Part shown: positions 55,450 to 61,072 of the stretch, in pieces
Numbering within the stretch: the stretch's first letter is position 1
How the letters are laid out: every line of letters starts with the position of its first letter
Source: Escherichia coli
Lineage (GTDB): Bacteria > Pseudomonadota > Gammaproteobacteria > Enterobacterales > Enterobacteriaceae
DNA: 64,000 nt
Assembly: GCF_013315695.1 (NCBI RefSeq)
Contig: NZ_CP054353.1
Reading direction: 5' to 3' (one strand)
Translations under genes and position numbers: made by a program
Notes under the pieces: model-generated
What the model was told of the DNA's origin: nothing
Databases searched by the model: none
The model's input: the letters and a program-made list of their open reading frames with translations, nothing else

Positions 55450-56256
55450 ATGAAAGATAACAATCAGAAAAAAATGATATGGCATGTTGCCTGTGATGAA
55501 TCTGGCGTTGATGGGCAGCCATTCTACGGGTTTGGGAGTCTCTGGATGAGCTATCAGAGGCGCGCTGAACTCACTCGCATGGTACAGGATTTGAGAAAAA
55601 AGCATGGATGCAGTGATGAGCTCAAATGGCAGAAAGCACATTCAAAGCGTAATGCAGCTTTTTATAGCGACGTCATTGATGTGTTTTTTAGGCACAACTG
55701 GATGGCTTTTCACTGTATTATTGTTGAGAAGTCTAAAGTAGAAAAATCATATCATGGTGGGGATTATGATCTTGCAATGCGTAAGCATTTTTGCAAGCTT
55801 ATTGAAACAAAAATAGGTAACGTGATCCAAAGGTGGCCTCATGCGGAATGTGAGTTCCTTATAGAAGTTGATCCCCTGCCATCTCGTTACAAAAAAGCCG
55901 ATGAAGAGTTTCACATAATTGCCAACCATTCTCTGGCCCGAAAGTATGGGCGCAAGGACATAATTAAACTAGTTGAAACAAAAGACTCAAAAACATCGGA
56001 ACATATTCAGCTTGTCGATTTTTTATTAGGGGCTGTAATGTGTGCATATCAAAGGAAAGCCACTTCTCCAGCGAAACTGGCTATGGCAGAGAAAATCGCT
56101 TCTTATCTTGGGTGGGAATCATTACGGCACGATACCTGGCCGACAGAGCGAAAATTCAATATCTGGTTGTTTTTTGATAAAAAGAAGGGGCCAAGAGATA
56201 TTGAAACGAAAGAGGTTAATTTGCGATATAAATTACCCCCTTTGCGTAAAAAATAG
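55450..56256 (+). CDS. DUF3800-like protein (268 aa), function unknown
   Basis: N-terminal MIWHVACDESGVDG and C-terminal IQLVDFLLGAVMCAY resemble the two hallmark motifs I recall for DUF3800. Visibly AT-rich compared with flanking phage genes. Opposite strand to the early operon. Confidence 0.7.
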   Translation: MKDNNQKKMIWHVACDESGVDGQPFYGFGSLWMSYQRRAELTRMVQDLRKKHGCSDELKWQKAHSKRNAAFYSDVIDVFFRHNWMAFHCIIVEKSKVEKSYHGGDYDLAMRKHFCKLIETKIGNVIQRWPHAECEFLIEVDPLPSRYKKADEEFHIIANHSLARKYGRKDIIKLVETKDSKTSEHIQLVDFLLGAVMCAYQRKATSPAKLAMAEKIASYLGWESLRHDTWPTERKFNIWLFFDKKKGPRDIETKEVNLRYKLPPLRKK

Positions 56257-56487
56257 CGCCAACCTCTCAGCTGGCGTGGTTGGAGTCCCAGTCTGACGAC
56301 GAAGTTACCAACTAGGCGGTATCAACTTTTGGGGGGCCGCCTCTAAATCCCCAAAACCTTGAAATCTGCGTAAAACATAACGTTGAAAACGTTTAAATTC
56401 AATAAATTTTTCTGTGAATCGGGGCGTCTATATCCGCCCCTCTTAAGTTTAGCTTCACTTCCCCTGGGGATGCTTCACCGTATTGCC

Positions 56488-56799
56488 TTATTCGGGGAAT
56501 AACGCCCTGATATTTCCGGCCATCTGATTGGTTATCTGTGCGGTTGGTACTGGCTGTGACACGGGGCGTTCTGTCCTGGTTTGTGTCACGGATAACGCCT
56601 CATCGTCAGCCCATGCAGCCAGTCGGTGAGCCTCTGCTGGATTCATTTTCAGAAGTGCCAGCCCGGCCAGAAAAGCCACGCGTTGGCCGCTTTTGCGGGC
56701 TTCTGGTGTAAGGCTGTCCAGCCAGGCGCATGCTTCGCTTTCGTTCTTGACGGCCGCAGGCTTCAGATAGAAACTTATCCGTCTGGTTGGTGTCGTCAT
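56488..56799 (-). CDS. parR: ParR-like centromere-binding protein (103 aa)
   Basis: The internal start MTTPTRRISFYLKPAAVKNESEACAWLDSLTPEARKSGQRVAFLAGLALLKMNP lies 4 nt after the parM stop. Compare R1 ParR ..RRTIAFKLNPDV...LDSIPQGERS..AALTAGLALYRQNP (from memory). Confidence 0.75.
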   Translation of the reverse strand: MTTPTRRISFYLKPAAVKNESEACAWLDSLTPEARKSGQRVAFLAGLALLKMNPAEAHRLAAWADDEALSVTQTRTERPVSQPVPTAQITNQMAGNIRALFPE

Positions 56800-56803
56800 T
56801 GGT

Positions 56804-57763
56804 TTACTCCTTGTCCATTGCGTACAGCCCATTAACCAGAGCAAACTGTGGCACCCCGTCCGCGATGAAAGTCGCATTAACTCCGCAGGCTTCGCGGATA
56901 GCGGGTGCCACAATCTCCGCCCCTCCACCGACAACCATCACCCGCCCATAACCCGAAAAACCCGCCAGCGCGCGGATCACGCGTTGTTTCAGTGTTTCTT
57001 CCTTTTCACGAATAACCGCCATCAGGCTGTCGTAATGCGCGTCATTGTGGATGTGCTGGCGCAGCCAGGCTTCATCATGGCGATGTTCGATAATGGTATT
57101 GGCGATATGGTGGCTGGTACGCATACCGTTAGTGGCCATCACCGACAGTACGGCATCGGCCATCAGAGAAACGCCTACGTGTGGATCGCAAAACACCTGG
57201 CTGATACCTGCCAGTTGTCCCTGAACCTTTGCCACATCCAGCGTGGTTCCGCCCAAATCCACAATCAGCAGTGATTCAAACGGACTCATGTCAGCCAGTG
57301 CCTTAAAGCCAGCCGGAATGGATTCAGGCATAACCCGTACGTTACGGATAGTGAATGCTTCGCCGTTCTGGTACTCCACCGGGCGCATAACGTTCGCTTT
57401 TTTGCGGTTGATGTTGGCCATGTCCGGCTGTGCGTTTGTGTCGAAATACTCGCTCAGTGGCAGGGTGACAACCACATCCACCTCCTGTGGCGTGATGCCT
57501 GATTTGACCAGCGCGTGATGAATGGCAATGACATTCACATCGCTGTACTGGTATTGCGTGTCGGTCGTCTGGACAAAGCGATCGCTGACCGGATCAAAAC
57601 CATAGCGCACGCCATCAAGCATGTAGTTCGCGGGCTGCGTGCCACCGAACGGCGCAGACCATTCCGACTTGAAGCTGTTCGGGCTGATGGCGTTGCGGCG
57701 TTCGCCGTTCTCAGTCCATGCCAGCTTGATGTTGGTGGAGCCGTCGTCGATACAAATTTTCAT
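56804..57763 (-). CDS. parM: ParM-like actin-family segregation ATPase (319 aa)
   Basis: MKICIDDGSTNIKLAW.., LIVDLGGTTLDV, VMVVGGGAEIV (phosphate-1, phosphate-2 and adenosine motifs). Collinear by eye with plasmid R1 ParM over the whole length. Confidence 0.9.
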   Translation of the reverse strand: MKICIDDGSTNIKLAWTENGERRNAISPNSFKSEWSAPFGGTQPANYMLDGVRYGFDPVSDRFVQTTDTQYQYSDVNVIAIHHALVKSGITPQEVDVVVTLPLSEYFDTNAQPDMANINRKKANVMRPVEYQNGEAFTIRNVRVMPESIPAGFKALADMSPFESLLIVDLGGTTLDVAKVQGQLAGISQVFCDPHVGVSLMADAVLSVMATNGMRTSHHIANTIIEHRHDEAWLRQHIHNDAHYDSLMAVIREKEETLKQRVIRALAGFSGYGRVMVVGGGAEIVAPAIREACGVNATFIADGVPQFALVNGLYAMDKE

Positions 57764-57794
57764 GTCGCTTTTCCTTATGTTGATTAATTAATCG

Positions 57795-57908
57795 TTTACA
57801 GGATTTTTAAATCCCGTTTTTGCCTGTTTTGTGCGCACTTCATATATCGCGGCACGTTTTTTGCTCATTTACGGGATTTGTGAATCCCGTTTCTGTCTGT
57901 TTTTTGTT
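57795..57908 (-). repeat. two 39-bp direct repeats, each with an internal palindrome, upstream of parM (parC-like candidate)
   Basis: tttacaGGATTTttAAATCCcgtttttgcctgttttgtg (57795-57833) and tttacGGGATTtgtgAATCCCgtttctgtctgttttttg (57868-57906). 33/39 identical, 73-bp spacing. Confidence 0.5.
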
Positions 57909-60686
57909 TCCACTGGTCAGGCTACCCCGCAGCAGGTCTGCTTTGCGGCGGGCGCGTTCAGTGGTTTCACTGATTCTCTGTGCGTGCTCTGCGTCACGGA
58001 TGGCGTGCAGCATGTCAGAAAGCACGGTAACAGGGGTTTTCATGGTGTTCTGGTCCTGCTGAAGTGTGGATGCCAGGCGTGCGGCGGCTTCGGGGTCTGA
58101 TGCCCCCAGCTGTTCCAGATAGCTGGCGACCGGGTTATGGCGGATCTCCGTGCTGCTTACGCCGTGATTACGGCTCAGGCGCTGCCAGAGCTGCGTGATT
58201 CGGCTGTCCGGGCGGGTATCCGGTTTGCGTACAATTTCAAATCCCTGCGGTGCAATGATGCTGCCGTCAACGTACAGACTGCCGCCCCGTAACAGGTGCT
58301 GCATCTGCTGTTCACCAATATGCAGGCCGAGAGATTCAGCAGACTCCCGCCATTCTTTTGCGAGTAACTCGTGGTTATCAGGCAAAGGCTGTGGCTGTTT
58401 GCGGCTCTGTGTCCAGCTCTGCATTTCATAACTGCTGTTTTTGGCCTGTTTGTCACGCAGCGAACGCATCAGCGCCCGGCGTTCGTGCCGTTTCAGTGAG
58501 CGCATCCATTCATTCACTTCAATTTCAATGCCGTCAGGAAGCTGCGGCCACTGTGCTGGCCGTTCTTCCGGCTGTTCTGTCCCGTTGTTGTCCGTTTCCT
58601 GTACACGGGGACAGTTATTGCCACGAGTCCAAGGGGCGGCAGGGCCGCCCTGAAGGTCAAAACCATTTTCGCGGGCGCTGTCTTCCGCTTCCGGTTTGCG
58701 TCTTACCAGCTTCCAGTTATCCGGATGCGTGCATACGCGGGAAGACTCCCCAATGAGCGGCGACCAGATCCCGTAAATCTGTACGCTCTGTTCACCGTAA
58801 TCGTTCAGCTCATCTGCGAGGTCGTAGGCGGTGCGAATCAGGTAGTCTTTGCGTGGAACAAGTACGCCACCCTGTTTCTCAATGTAGGTGGCAAAACATC
58901 CGGCATCAGCGGCAGCGAGTACCGCGTCCATTGCGTCATCCTTCAGCCGTTGCGGGCCTTCCGGGTTGCGTGCCATCTGGCTGGCAAGGCGGCGCAGTTC
59001 ACGCCACACCTGACGGGAGGGGATACCAAAGAACTGGAACTGGCGGACCCGGTGAAGGCGCGCCCAGCCGATGGCGCGTTCCACGCTCTCGGCCATTGAT
59101 TTTCCGGTTTCGTGGTCAACGCGTGGCTTGCCCGTTTTCGGGTCGATGCCATCCACGGCGCGGCTGTCCAGGTTCTTTCCGATGTAGGTGGCGATGTAGC
59201 TGGTTGGTGTGCCTTTTGAGCCGTCTACGTACTCCGCCTTAAAACGCGGAGTTATGTCATCGCCCAGCTCGTGGCGGTCTTCCTGAATGGCAATATCGCA
59301 GACGTGGGACACGATGGTTTCAATCTCGTCCTGATGTGCAAAGACCATCATATGCCAGTGCACAGTGCCGTCATGGTGAGGCTCCACCGTGCGGATGCCA
59401 TACCAGCGCAGACCGTCGCGGTTCAGTTTTTTGCGGACCGCCGCAAAAAACGTGTTAACCAGGTAATCGCTGGAGTCGCGCATGGTGGCCCCGTTCCATT
59501 TGGGATTCGGATGACCGTTCTCCGTTGTTGCGTGGTATTTTGACGGGCAGGTGACAGTCAGAAACACCGCTCTGTCGCCACGGGCTTCGGCCAGAAGTTC
59601 CAGTCCCTTCATGGTGGCCATCATTTCTGCCTTACGGTGAACCGGGTTACTTACTCCCGCGTAATACACTGTCTCGAGATCAATCGTGAACCCGTCTTCG
59701 TTTTCCAGCATGAAACTTTTCAGGAAATCGCGTGTTTTCTCGCGCTGTGCGCGAAACTCGCTTAACGCGTCCTGGCTCAGATAGGGTGATGTTTTTCTGG
59801 AAACCAGACAGGCGGCGCGGAGTTGTTCTTCTCTCCACTCGCAACGTAACAGCCACAGTTTGCGTTTCCACCATTCCGCACAGGTCAGGCGAAGGATTGC
59901 GCCCGGCAGCAGCTCCGTGTCCGGTTCGTTCCTCCGGTCTTTGTCTGTTGTCAGTGCGTCATAATGTGGAGGCATGGCGTGCAGGTGTAACGCCATGCGG
60001 GCCAGCATCTGATACGCCTTCAGCGTTACATCCATGGTCAGTTCGCCATCAGTCGCACCAAAGCCATCGCAGAGTTTTTCGAAGGTGCTGCTGAACATCG
60101 CCGCCGTCATGGTGGCCAGCGTCTGTATCTGGTGTTTGTTGAGCTGCGGCAGGTAAAGCAAATCGTCCAGGCGTTCGCGTCCGGCAAGGGAGCGATAACC
60201 CGGTGTCAGCCAGCGGTGATCGGTGCGGTCCAGGCGTTCGAATATTTTGCGCAGGGTTCCGCGCGCGTAGCGTTCAGCCTGCCAGCTCTTTTTGCCTTTC
60301 TGGCGATCGGCTTCCTGTTTTTTGCGCAGGAAAGAGAGGTGGCGGCTCAGAGGTTCACGCAGATAAACGGGAAGCACCTTCAGTGTGGCAAAAGCACGGG
60401 CCACCGGGTCTTGTTCTGTTGCCTGACGCTTGCTGATGATGCTTTGTGCCAGCTTTTCACGCTGTCCGGCTTCCTCAAGGGATGCCATGAGTTTTTTACC
60501 CACGGTGGATTGTGCGAAAAAGGCTTCCTCCTTCGCTTCCTGTTCTTCCAGAGCCTTTTTGTCTGCCTCAAGGTAGTAACGGATGGCGCGTTGTAGGTCG
60601 GTTTCAGTTTCCTGCCTGTGCTCCGTAAATCTGGCCGGATCAATGGCTGGCCGTGGTTCATTCCAGCTCCATGCAAACTCACTCAT
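57840..60686 (-). CDS. gpA-like HUH rolling-circle replication initiator endonuclease (about 948 aa)
   Basis: HUH motif TVHWHMMVF and paired tyrosines TSYIATYIGKN as in P2 A. The start at MSEFAWSW gives an ATGA overlap with the upstream ORF stop. The track's upstream ATG at 60713 is not excluded. Confidence 0.85.
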   Translation of the reverse strand: MSEFAWSWNEPRPAIDPARFTEHRQETETDLQRAIRYYLEADKKALEEQEAKEEAFFAQSTVGKKLMASLEEAGQREKLAQSIISKRQATEQDPVARAFATLKVLPVYLREPLSRHLSFLRKKQEADRQKGKKSWQAERYARGTLRKIFERLDRTDHRWLTPGYRSLAGRERLDDLLYLPQLNKHQIQTLATMTAAMFSSTFEKLCDGFGATDGELTMDVTLKAYQMLARMALHLHAMPPHYDALTTDKDRRNEPDTELLPGAILRLTCAEWWKRKLWLLRCEWREEQLRAACLVSRKTSPYLSQDALSEFRAQREKTRDFLKSFMLENEDGFTIDLETVYYAGVSNPVHRKAEMMATMKGLELLAEARGDRAVFLTVTCPSKYHATTENGHPNPKWNGATMRDSSDYLVNTFFAAVRKKLNRDGLRWYGIRTVEPHHDGTVHWHMMVFAHQDEIETIVSHVCDIAIQEDRHELGDDITPRFKAEYVDGSKGTPTSYIATYIGKNLDSRAVDGIDPKTGKPRVDHETGKSMAESVERAIGWARLHRVRQFQFFGIPSRQVWRELRRLASQMARNPEGPQRLKDDAMDAVLAAADAGCFATYIEKQGGVLVPRKDYLIRTAYDLADELNDYGEQSVQIYGIWSPLIGESSRVCTHPDNWKLVRRKPEAEDSARENGFDLQGGPAAPWTRGNNCPRVQETDNNGTEQPEERPAQWPQLPDGIEIEVNEWMRSLKRHERRALMRSLRDKQAKNSSYEMQSWTQSRKQPQPLPDNHELLAKEWRESAESLGLHIGEQQMQHLLRGGSLYVDGSIIAPQGFEIVRKPDTRPDSRITQLWQRLSRNHGVSSTEIRHNPVASYLEQLGASDPEAAARLASTLQQDQNTMKTPVTVLSDMLHAIRDAEHAQRISETTERARRKADLLRGSLTSGNKKQTETGFTNPVNEQKTCRDI

Positions 60687-61072
60687 GGCTGGTATCCCGT
60701 CACGCGCTGCCACTCCTGCGAGAAGAGGGCAGAAAGGCGGTTAAATTCAGCGGTGTATTCACTCAGCGAGGCACACCCGCCAGCAGTGCGATGCGCCAGC
60801 ATTGCCGCAAATACGGAGGCCGGGGAGTCGTAATACGCCAGCAGTGATTCTCCGTGTGGTGTCAGGCAATGCAACGCCAGCCCGTGTGGTGTGAAGTCCA
60901 CGCGGTAGCAGTCGTCTACTGTGAAATAAAGGGTGTCTGCATTTTCCGGTTTTGTGGTGCGTGCTCTGTTGTCACGACCACGGATGTAGAGATCAAATAA
61001 TCCCTGAAGAACGGGAGCCAGACGGGTGTCCTGTGTGCGCACCCATCTTGTGAAGTCATGAGCGTCAATCAT
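60683..61072 (-). CDS. hypothetical early protein (129 aa)
   Basis: ORF translationally coupled to A. No family recognised. Confidence 0.6.
   Translation of the reverse strand: MIDAHDFTRWVRTQDTRLAPVLQGLFDLYIRGRDNRARTTKPENADTLYFTVDDCYRVDFTPHGLALHCLTPHGESLLAYYDSPASVFAAMLAHRTAGGCASLSEYTAEFNRLSALFSQEWQRVTGYQP

Follow-up and report, generated by a model that had tools for sequence, protein, structure and literature searches.

The best understood DNA segregation machine of bacteria is the type II, or ParMRC, partition system, typified by parMRC (stbAB) of plasmids R1 and R100. Here the genes follow the order parC-parM-parR, with the repeats of parC lying 5′ of parM; in R1, parC comprises ten 11-bp A/C-rich direct iterons that flank the promoter. 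Related functions are encoded by phages. The AlpC/AlpA/alpS system of the integrated prophage CGP3 in Corynebacterium glutamicum consists of an early-induced actin-like filament and a DNA-binding adaptor, AlpA, which binds repeats upstream of its own operon, and without it the excised circle does not replicate efficiently (PMC4446434). The P1-like phage-plasmid D6, which is maintained as a plasmid, encodes StbA and StbB downstream of 16-nt direct repeats, and its annotators had noted a likeness to 'phage P88 StbA'.

Among P2-like phages, about a quarter have a putative plasmid partitioning system, perhaps enabling their persistence as plasmids, as stated in one sentence by Rousset et al. (2022, PMC9122126). 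The same authors defined the gpA-gpQ locus as a defence hotspot. Phage P88 has been induced from a chromosomal prophage bounded by attL and attR (PMC5285337). Whole-word searches of the literature found no functional study of, or experiment on, the cassette in any P2-like phage. Here, we discuss one such cassette, located in a 64-kb stretch of Escherichia coli DNA that was analysed as a whole and is referred to as the window.

The locus and its components

The cassette is carried by a P2-like prophage of P88 type. In E. coli A24, whose record is 100% identical to the window copy, this prophage has inserted between btuC and ihfA, with its integrase and both chromosomal junctions present. Its gene order is that of the P88 record NC_026014, and 97.5% nucleotide identity to P88 over the gpA 3′ end, parM and parR places it in Xuanwuvirus (P88-like Peduoviridae). 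Phage Chuche is 98.3% identical to the window across 2.6 kb, including a DUF3800 cargo gene. Gene A, encoding a 948-amino-acid product according to PGAP in the identical A24 record, lies directly upstream of parM on the same strand, as the preliminary description had reported, and the cassette occupies the gpA-to-gpQ slot of a P2-like prophage; portal and terminase genes are found past a short cargo region (Table 1).

Table 1. Positions of the cassette components and neighbouring features in the window.
Feature	Position	Strand	Evidence
Gene A, rolling-circle replication endonuclease	57840..60713	-	Pfam Phage_GPA, 4.6e-129
Distal parC-like repeat, 42 nt (candidate)	57865..57906	-	Repeat search; perfect palindrome at 57871-57890
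Proximal parC-like repeat, 42 nt (candidate)	57792..57833	-	Repeat search; palindrome at 57798-57817
parM, actin-fold ATPase, 319 aa	57763..56804	-	Pfam StbA_N, 1.8e-82; ParM C-terminal domain, 1e-68
parR, centromere-binding adaptor (predicted), 103 aa	56799..56488	-	Pfam Plasmid_stab_B (PF10784), 1e-23
GC-rich hairpin	56421..56440	.	Terminator-like scan

The gene A stop (57840) and the parM ATG (57763) are separated by 76 nt, and in 65 of 78 related loci the distance between the end of the gpA tblastn alignment and the parM start is 79 nt. A terminator scan found no terminator-like site on the cassette strand of this interval. Since the cassette directly follows gene A with no intervening terminator, co-transcription with the early operon is expected. 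No consensus sigma-70 promoter reached the scan threshold between 56200 and 58100; our own reading of the sequence picks out a weak promoter candidate, TTAAAA-16-ATTAAT, overlapping the proximal palindrome. At the other end, the hairpin lies 48 nt beyond the parR stop, where the operon ends and the variable cargo begins; the scan scored it as a terminator solely on the + strand. Alignments of close phage relatives end at about the parR stop, and the cargo that follows ranges from 992 to 4173 bp, while the spacing between gpA and parM stays constant.

The parM product begins MKICIDDGSTNIKLAW and contains IVDLGGTTLD and VVGGGAEIV. It is 47% identical to ParM of plasmid R1 over its full length (318 amino acids) and matches the R1 ParM structures 1mwk and 4a62 (E 1e-92, residues 2-316). 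The segments DDGST, MPESIPAG, DLGGTT and GGGAE all align with R1 ParM, and the phosphate-binding and adenosine motifs are intact, as befits the actin-fold ATPase of a type II system. The protein belongs to PHROG 691, 'partition protein', and NCBIfam returned sub-threshold matches only (PRTRC_D, 22.7 bits against a cutoff of 214.8; PRK13917, 19.8 against 417). The preliminary description had picked out this open reading frame by its DLGGTT and GGGA motifs and its collinearity with R1 ParM, all of which were reproduced, and the family and structure search that it proposed matched both Pfam StbA_N and the R1 structures.

The parM stop codon (TAA, 56806-56804) is followed by a 4-nt gap and the parR ATG at 56799, with GGAG 7 nt 5′ of this ATG, within the final parM codons. 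Because the parR start is so close to the parM stop, translational coupling is likely. PGAP calls the same 103-amino-acid ParR in the identical A24 record; a longer version of the frame (148 amino acids, TTG start) shares sequence with parM and is probably not used. ParR, assigned to PHROG 2515, shares 37% identity with R1 ParR over the N-terminal 49 amino acids (BLASTP 3e-08), and together with the Pfam assignment this upholds the resemblance reported earlier and places a StbB/ParR-family adaptor directly after parM, as in type II systems. ParR has no match at all in NCBIfam, and a single-sequence phmmer search against the PDB returned none, whereas a profile of ParR homologues matches the pB171 ParR/StbB structure 2JD3 (E 0.0031). 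It is this sequence link to a ribbon-helix-helix structure that suggests the same fold for ParR. The AlphaFold2 monomer model is poor (mean pLDDT 54.8); its helices at 20-29 and 32-52 fit the helix-helix part, the N-terminal strand is absent, and a further helix is predicted at 86-100. Both ends of ParR are conserved, as PTRRISFYLKP at the N-terminus and as the tail NI(R/Q)xxFP at the C-terminus; the linker between them is hypervariable, to the point of being unalignable between alleles, and at least three allelic types of ParR occur. N96, I97, F101 and P102 are invariant across 18 ParR homologues with differing linkers, and the tail GNIRALFPE aligns with KKNAMKLIN of R1 and NNIKNLFPDDE of IncI.

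Upstream of parM are two repeats that are 83% identical over 42 nt, with a start-to-start spacing of 73 bp, or about 7 helical turns. Each contains one 20-bp palindrome: the distal one, ACGGGATT-CACA-AATCCCGT, has perfect 8-bp arms, and the proximal one, ACGGGATTT-AA-AAATCCTGT, has 9-bp arms with one mismatch. The preliminary description had given these repeats, 73 bp apart and palindrome-bearing, as 39-nt units with 33/39 identical positions upstream of parM. The proximal repeat is 29-70 nt 5′ of the parM ATG; the distal one, as a correction, is within the last ~22 codons of gene A and is not intergenic. At no more than one mismatch, the palindrome motif occurs at only these two sites in the window, and 0 times in 100 shuffles. 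In 57 distinct relatives the palindrome arms are conserved and the 4-nt centre is variable. A relative from Plesiomonas, with a ParM 63% identical, has the same two-site layout, 72 bp apart and with the distal site again inside the gpA 3′ end; repeats upstream of parM were not detected in a Hafnia relative. The two palindromic repeats are candidates for parC, and would be the sites bound by ParR. The 42-nt units contain A/C-rich tracts with no periodic motif by eye, and an R1-like 11-bp iteron substructure is not claimed.

The identification of an R1-type parM-parR pair with candidate parC repeats in a P2-like prophage is therefore right, as judged by Pfam, the R1 structures and the repeat search. 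The window copy is a member of the P88/Xuanwuvirus set and shows no material difference from it. With R1/R100 parMRC it shares the order parC-parM-parR (parC being a candidate here), repeats 5′ of parM, a ParM with all nucleotide-binding motifs, a ParR of the same Pfam family that is similar in its N-terminal region, and a short conserved ParR tail that aligns with the R1 tail. In contrast to R1, the carrier is an integrating tailed phage and not a plasmid, the iterons flanking a promoter are replaced by two 20-bp palindromes, one of them within the upstream gene, no consensus promoter is recognisable, and ParR lacks a middle segment (103 amino acids, compared with 116 in the R1-type plasmid copy examined). 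The layout can also be likened to that of CGP3, where an integrated prophage again encodes an actin-like ATPase and a DNA-binding adaptor. However, the gene order is reversed in CGP3, with the adaptor gene first, and AlpC is a distant member of the actin-like proteins and lacks dynamic instability; the phage ParM, by contrast, is a close relative of R1 ParM. The role of the Alp system was shown by experiment, and that of the P88-like cassette is one we infer, in part by analogy. The D6 ParM is 48% identical and is likewise followed by a StbB-type ParR, but it groups among plasmid ParMs in the tree, outside the P2-like clade.

Distribution, conservation and phylogeny

At 95-99% nucleotide identity, the cassette is found in P88 and other Xuanwuvirus records, at the same position after the replication endonuclease. 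Besides P88, 13 other phage records have it, and so do 24% of complete E. coli genomes (1306 of 5426), among them some labelled O157:H7 and ST131. E. coli and RefSeq records name the products by standard PGAP terms, ParM and partitioning protein, beside the replication endonuclease. The preliminary description had regarded such a cassette as unusual in P2-like phages and had proposed a survey of peduovirus genomes for parMR next to gpA. This survey reveals a widespread arrangement, and the claim to novelty fails because parMR beside gpA is both common and already described (PMC9122126). As a genome-scan finding, the cassette is an ordinary feature that is already known and is routinely and correctly annotated.

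What is new concerns its breadth and history. The order gpA-parM-parR is found in prophages of Escherichia, Salmonella, Citrobacter, Plesiomonas, Hafnia, Serratia and Enterobacter, and this synteny thus extends beyond Escherichia to P2-like prophages of the last four genera, in which ParM is 54-63% identical. This breadth comes from a protein search with context look-ups; a contig scan with a single ParM query returned only three near-identical loci. One of these three is labelled Vagococcus, probably through contamination. In a phylogenetic tree, the ParMs of P2-like phages form one clade separate from the IncF, IncI and D6 ParMs, which points to long vertical retention. The separate clade is a new observation, as are the start of the cargo only after parR and the strong purifying selection under which parM evolves, with a dN/dS of 0.055 (69 alleles) and 84 of 85 copies at full length; the best 80 copies in an IMG/VR scan, all 99-100% identical, were used for the selection analysis. 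Truncated or frameshifted copies exist, for instance in phage 503458, as do several large clusters of short ParM proteins. The location of the E. coli copies, also newly observed, is almost exclusively chromosomal (1452 of 1454 in complete genomes).

Possible roles of the cassette

P2 replication gives monomeric circles, which serve packaging. The explanation we favour, and to which as a whole we assign about an even chance, is that a complete, functional-looking R1-type type II (ParMRC) module acts on circular phage genomes that are not integrated, positioning or segregating them as they replicate or become established, in the manner of AlpAC of prophage CGP3, and that it is a long-standing core part of one P2-like lineage (Xuanwuvirus/P88-like phages and their relatives), neither a recent plasmid pick-up nor hotspot cargo. 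ParR dimers would bind the two phased palindromes 5′ of parM via the N-terminal ribbon-helix-helix, and the conserved C-terminal tail would capture the ends of ParM-ATP filaments, so that filament elongation between two ParR-parC complexes could drive two circular phage genomes apart. Transcription of parMR would occur with the early operon upon infection or induction, and any internal promoter would be repressed by ParR. The substrate would be the non-integrated phage circle, be it the monomeric products of gpA rolling-circle replication or the circle before integration or after excision. The benefit may be efficient replication or packaging, together with a copy for both daughter cells before integration or lysis. 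Any such benefit is not essential to P2-type phages, since P2 and 186 do well without a system of this kind, and a candidate centromere of two palindromic sites, compared with the ten iterons of R1, is a point against this explanation, as are the lack of a consensus promoter in the scan, the Hafnia relative in which no repeats were detected, and the truncated or frameshifted copies. In its favour are the identity of ParM and ParR, the conserved ParR tail, the phased palindromes and their recurrence in Plesiomonas, the constant place beside gpA across genera, the single ParM clade, the purifying selection on parM and the CGP3 precedent.

The plasmid state put forward by Rousset et al. (2022, PMC9122126), and considered in the preliminary description, would make the cassette a maintenance device of facultative phage-plasmids that persist extrachromosomally as an alternative to integration. 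One PLSDB entry, the circular 'plasmid' pZ1323PEC0009-2 of 34,461 bp, comprises an entire P88-like genome whose ends meet precisely at attP; a sister strain has this phage integrated at pdxB. The Plesiomonas relative (assembly GCA_009183595.1) resides on a contig of phage size (32,167 bp) that has the integrase at its end, and D6, which alone among the other phages of the collection has a related ParM, is a true plasmid prophage. However, pZ1323PEC0009-2 is not proof of an episome: the record is the attL-to-attR segment closed at attP, which fits induction or carriage, and spontaneous induction also yields a circular attP record in a long-read assembly. The remaining six of the seven PLSDB matches are not complete phage-sized circular replicons, five being replicons between 228 kb and 1.4 Mb in size that presumably contain an integrated copy, and the sixth, a linear Shigella record of 26.8 kb, covering only 65% of the cassette. 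The near-exclusive chromosomal location in E. coli argues against a stable plasmid prophage, as does the induction of P88 from a chromosomal prophage, and the integrase, repressor and Cox gene are intact. The gpA rolling-circle initiator of the early operon is the only replication function in evidence, and the annotated records show no plasmid-type replicon. A phage-plasmid would be extrachromosomal and have a plasmid replicon, whereas the window copy is integrated and has an integrase, and one ambiguous circular attP record stands on the other side; we therefore consider a plasmid state unlikely.

Less probable still is a benefit to the lysogen. Expressed from the prophage, the cassette would then shut out incoming plasmids or related phages, or make them unstable, by means of partition incompatibility or interfering filaments, or it would act as one of the gpA-gpQ hotspot defences. 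The cassette does lie within this hotspot, the adjacent DUF3800 gene (55450-56256) matches the PADLOC candidate PDC-M04A (2.6e-35), ParR varies in allelic type and linker, and the phiSM paper counts it among 'fitness' factors. But ParM and ParR match no PADLOC model, and the cassette is constant beside gpA across genera while the cargo varies, on which grounds defence was rejected as the main explanation. There is neither a terminator nor a recognisable promoter of its own to set the cassette apart from the early operon, and hardly any variation is seen in the palindrome arms or in the ParR N-terminus presumed to contact DNA, contrary to what diversifying incompatibility predicts. A selfish or inert passenger, derived from a plasmid and without a role for phage or host, would account for the frameshifted or truncated copies and for the lack of the cassette in P2 and 186. 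It is highly improbable given the low dN/dS and the intact state of nearly all parM copies, synteny kept down to 54-63% protein identity in five or more genera, and the single ParM clade with the long vertical retention that it implies.

Positioning of the viral genome thus remains our preferred reading, and its wider form is offered more tentatively, at somewhat under even odds: the R1-type spindle of P88-like phages would be an ancient viral genome-positioning machine and not a plasmid-maintenance device, acting on gpA-made monomeric circles and on the pre-integration circle and raising burst size or lysogenisation frequency, with a facultative plasmid state as a minority variant.

Roughly one in four complete E. 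coli genomes carries a plasmid-type partition cassette in a chromosomal prophage. Because ParMRC is so well understood, and P88 can be induced and lends itself to genetics, the role of the cassette in the phage is directly answerable. Should the facultative plasmid state prove true, these phages would form a new P2-like group of phage-plasmids. If genome positioning is the true role, this would be the first bona fide ParMRC system so used in a tailed phage of Gram-negative bacteria; it would carry the AlpAC precedent over to phages of enterobacteria and reveal what sets the fate of non-integrated phage circles.

ParM, ParR and their prophage setting

The preliminary description had proposed an R1-type parM-parR pair directly after the replication gene A of a P2-like prophage, and both open reading frames, their family identities and their position on the gene A strand were reproduced. 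ParM matches the Pfam families StbA_N (1.8e-82) and ParM C-terminal domain (1e-68), aligns end to end with the R1 ParM crystal structures 1mwk and 4a62 (E about 1e-92), and is 47% identical to R1 ParM. The parM stop codon is TAA (56806-56804), and translational coupling with parR is likely, since a GGAG within the final parM codons precedes the parR ATG. ParR matches Plasmid_stab_B (1e-23), with 37% identity to R1 ParR over its N-terminal 49 residues; the best PDB match of a profile of 18 homologues was a solved ParR, that of pB171 (StbB; 2JD3, E 0.003). The same two products are annotated by PGAP in the identical A24 record.

Features of the cassette and its neighbours
Feature	Position	Strand	Remarks
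parM	57763..56804	-	319-aa ORF; N-terminus MKICIDDGSTNIKLAW; motifs DLGGTT and GGGAE
parR	56799..56488	-	103-aa ORF; ATG start at 56799, 4 nt past the parM stop
parC-like direct repeat, proximal	57792-57833	-	42 nt, upstream of parM
parC-like direct repeat, distal	57865-57906	-	42 nt, upstream of parM
gene A	57840-60713	-	product about 950 aa
DUF3800 cargo gene	55450-56256	+	268 aa; Pfam 3.5e-10; between parR and the cos/portal region

When aligned with the ParRs of R1, IncI and D6, the tail GNIRALFPE lies opposite the R1 C-terminal KKNAMKLIN, the ParM-binding peptide as seen in the 4A62 complex. Across relatives, the N-terminus PTRRISFYLKP and tail residues N96, I97, F101 and P102 are invariant and the linker is hypervariable, a domain logic that would be expected of a working ParR. 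The AlphaFold2 monomer (pLDDT 54.8) is too poor a model for judging a ribbon-helix-helix fold. At least three allelic types of ParR (one of 103 aa and two 104-aa forms) occur in the window (56488-56799) and the related loci L019-L098; they have the N-terminal 16 residues and a C-terminal NI(R/Q)xxFP tail in common, but their linkers cannot be aligned. In many E. coli genomes the megablast match stops within parR, at position 1166 or 1257 of the query, which suggests that recombination breakpoints of the hotspot fall inside this gene.

Gene A (Pfam Phage_GPA, 4.6e-129) lies immediately upstream of parM, and a terminator scan found no terminator-like site between the two genes on their strand. 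On the 3′ side of parR follow, in order, a GC-rich hairpin, the divergent DUF3800 gene, the cos region, and the portal and terminase genes. The E. coli A24 chromosome is 100% identical to the window; its prophage lies between btuC and ihfA, with integrase and repressor at the far end. The P2 gene A product has ~761 aa. Because the Plesiomonas gpA (55% identity over the aligned stretch) covers only residues 10-711 of the window protein, the C-terminal ~200 aa of the latter form a lineage-specific extension, with the distal parC-like site in its last codons.

The candidate parC

Two palindrome-bearing repeats upstream of parM had also been described, and they are indeed present, 73 bp apart from start to start (about seven helical turns) and 83% identical; the distal one, however, falls within gene A (stop at 57840), in its final ~22 codons. 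Each carries one 20-bp palindrome, ACGGGATT-CACA-AATCCCGT and ACGGGATTT-AA-AAATCCTGT. With at most one mismatch allowed, the motif occurs in the 64-kb window at these two places only, and 100 shuffles did not yield it once. Comparison of 57 distinct close relatives shows variable middle four bases between palindrome arms that are mostly fixed. In the Plesiomonas relative, too, two repeats lie 72 bp from each other and show a symmetric CGGG...CCCG element; the distal copy again falls within the gpA 3′ end. A sigma-70 scan of 56200-58100 found no consensus promoter.

The R1 parC, in contrast, consists of ten 11-bp A/C-rich iterons flanking a promoter, and R1 ParR has a middle segment that the window ParR lacks. 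These differences would represent a distinct centromere design within the ParMRC family, and are no argument against membership of it.

Distribution and the gpA-gpQ hotspot

The cassette had been considered unusual for P2-like phages, a view contradicted by its occurrence and by existing annotation. Fourteen phage records contain it at 95-99% nucleotide identity, among them P88, P884B11, 520873, 503458, Chuche, phiSM, PhiR44_2, 569R5 and 705R2; P88 and P884B11, the records whose taxonomy or organism name was shown, belong to the genus Xuanwuvirus. It is also present in 1306 of 5426 complete E. coli genomes, and a 'replication endonuclease' adjoins it in all examples among the matches listed. 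In RefSeq the genes go by 'plasmid segregation protein ParM' and 'partition protein', PHROGs holds families for both, and the D6 annotators recorded similarity to 'phage P88 StbA'. An analysis of the gpA-gpQ locus (Rousset et al., 2022, PMC9122126) reports a putative plasmid partitioning system in about one in four P2-like phages and suggests that it may allow them to persist as plasmids; in the phiSM paper the gene is counted among fitness cargo (PMC6456863). No functional study of the cassette was found in the literature. Since it is common, annotated and described in peduoviruses, the cassette is already known, and the claim of novelty is unsupported.

In phage 503458 (CP025874.1 / NC_049341.1) parM is broken and aligns as four pieces. 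Two clusters of ParM fragments, P0010 and P0017 (188 and 229 aa; 555 and 649 members), lie on long contigs, which indicates lineages with decayed parM. A 226-kb contig labelled as the Firmicute 'Vagococcus sp. WN89Y' (NZ_JBQPOM010000071.1) encodes a ParM 98% identical to that of the E. coli prophage; this assembly is most likely contaminated or mislabelled.

P2-like prophages of Plesiomonas, Hafnia, Serratia and Enterobacter encode ParMs 54-63% identical to the window ParM, in the same order as in the window (gpA, 0 to 2 genes, parM, parR, cargo, portal). The ParMs of Dickeya and Mangrovibacter, at about 50% identity, are encoded by elements of other kinds, an ICE and an integrated plasmid. 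In a neighbour-joining tree without bootstrap, all context-verified P2-like ParMs form one clade, apart from those of IncF, IncI and D6. Of 78 related loci, 65 have the parM start 79 nt past the point where the gpA tblastn alignment ends, whereas the distance from parR stop to portal stop ranges from 992 to 4173 bp and the cargo differs by lineage (DUF3800/PDC-M04A in the window, a KAP NTPase in Enterobacter, HicAB in Serratia). Because spacing is constant on one side and cargo varies on the other, the cassette is a fixed flank of the hotspot, outside its variable cargo. The selection data agree with this reading: parM has a dN/dS of 0.055 (69 alleles) and is full length in 84 of 85 copies, and for parR as a whole the value is 0.24, with 0.14 in codons 1-64 and 0.49 in the linker. 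The DUF3800 protein matches the PADLOC defence candidate PDC-M04A (2.6e-35) and PHROG 3732; Chuche is the only other carrier among the phage records.

Plasmid prophage or excised circle

A partition cassette could maintain the prophage as a stable plasmid. One circular 'plasmid' of 34,461 bp in PLSDB (NZ_CP148288.1, E. coli Z1323PEC0009) is a complete P88-like genome closed at attP. It equals exactly the attL-to-attR segment of an identical prophage at the start of pdxB in the sister strain Z1323HEC0067 (NZ_CP148378.1, 2646500-2687000), where the core AAAATCCTTGTTGATGAAA is duplicated at both ends; the circle is closed at this core. Such a molecule is the expected product of Int-mediated excision, and fits spontaneous induction and carriage alike. 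Stable plasmid maintenance is disfavoured, as 1452 of 1454 E. coli cassette places are chromosomal, the integration and immunity genes are intact, the annotated records contain no plasmid replicon, and the prophage from which P88 was induced had attL and attR (PMC5285337).

A P2-like element with parMR in Plesiomonas shigelloides lies on a phage-sized 32,167-bp contig with integrase at the contig end (WEKF01000002.1), which could be an extrachromosomal or a separately assembled phage genome. Near ogr and att, the Z1323PEC0009 circle (L002, 1291-1431) and the Z1323HEC0067 prophage (L099, 4175-4315) carry a Hok/Gef family toxin gene and a Com/methyltransferase pair, more cargo of plasmid-like or post-segregational-killing type at the opposite genome end.

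Judged by its parts and by how well these are conserved, the cassette looks like a working ParMRC machine, in which ParR would bind the phased palindromes, its tail would capture the ends of ParM filaments, and insertional filament growth would separate two parC-bearing DNA molecules. P2-type replication yields monomeric double-stranded circles. Because of this, and because the cassette ends the early replication operon, the favoured substrate would be non-integrated phage circles after infection or excision, a proposal to which we give an even chance. AlpAC/alpS, from the integrated prophage CGP3, is the analogue that has been studied by experiment: it is induced early, is needed for efficient replication, and tethers circular phage DNA to actin-like filaments (PMC4446434). 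The biological role of the cassette should be readily testable.
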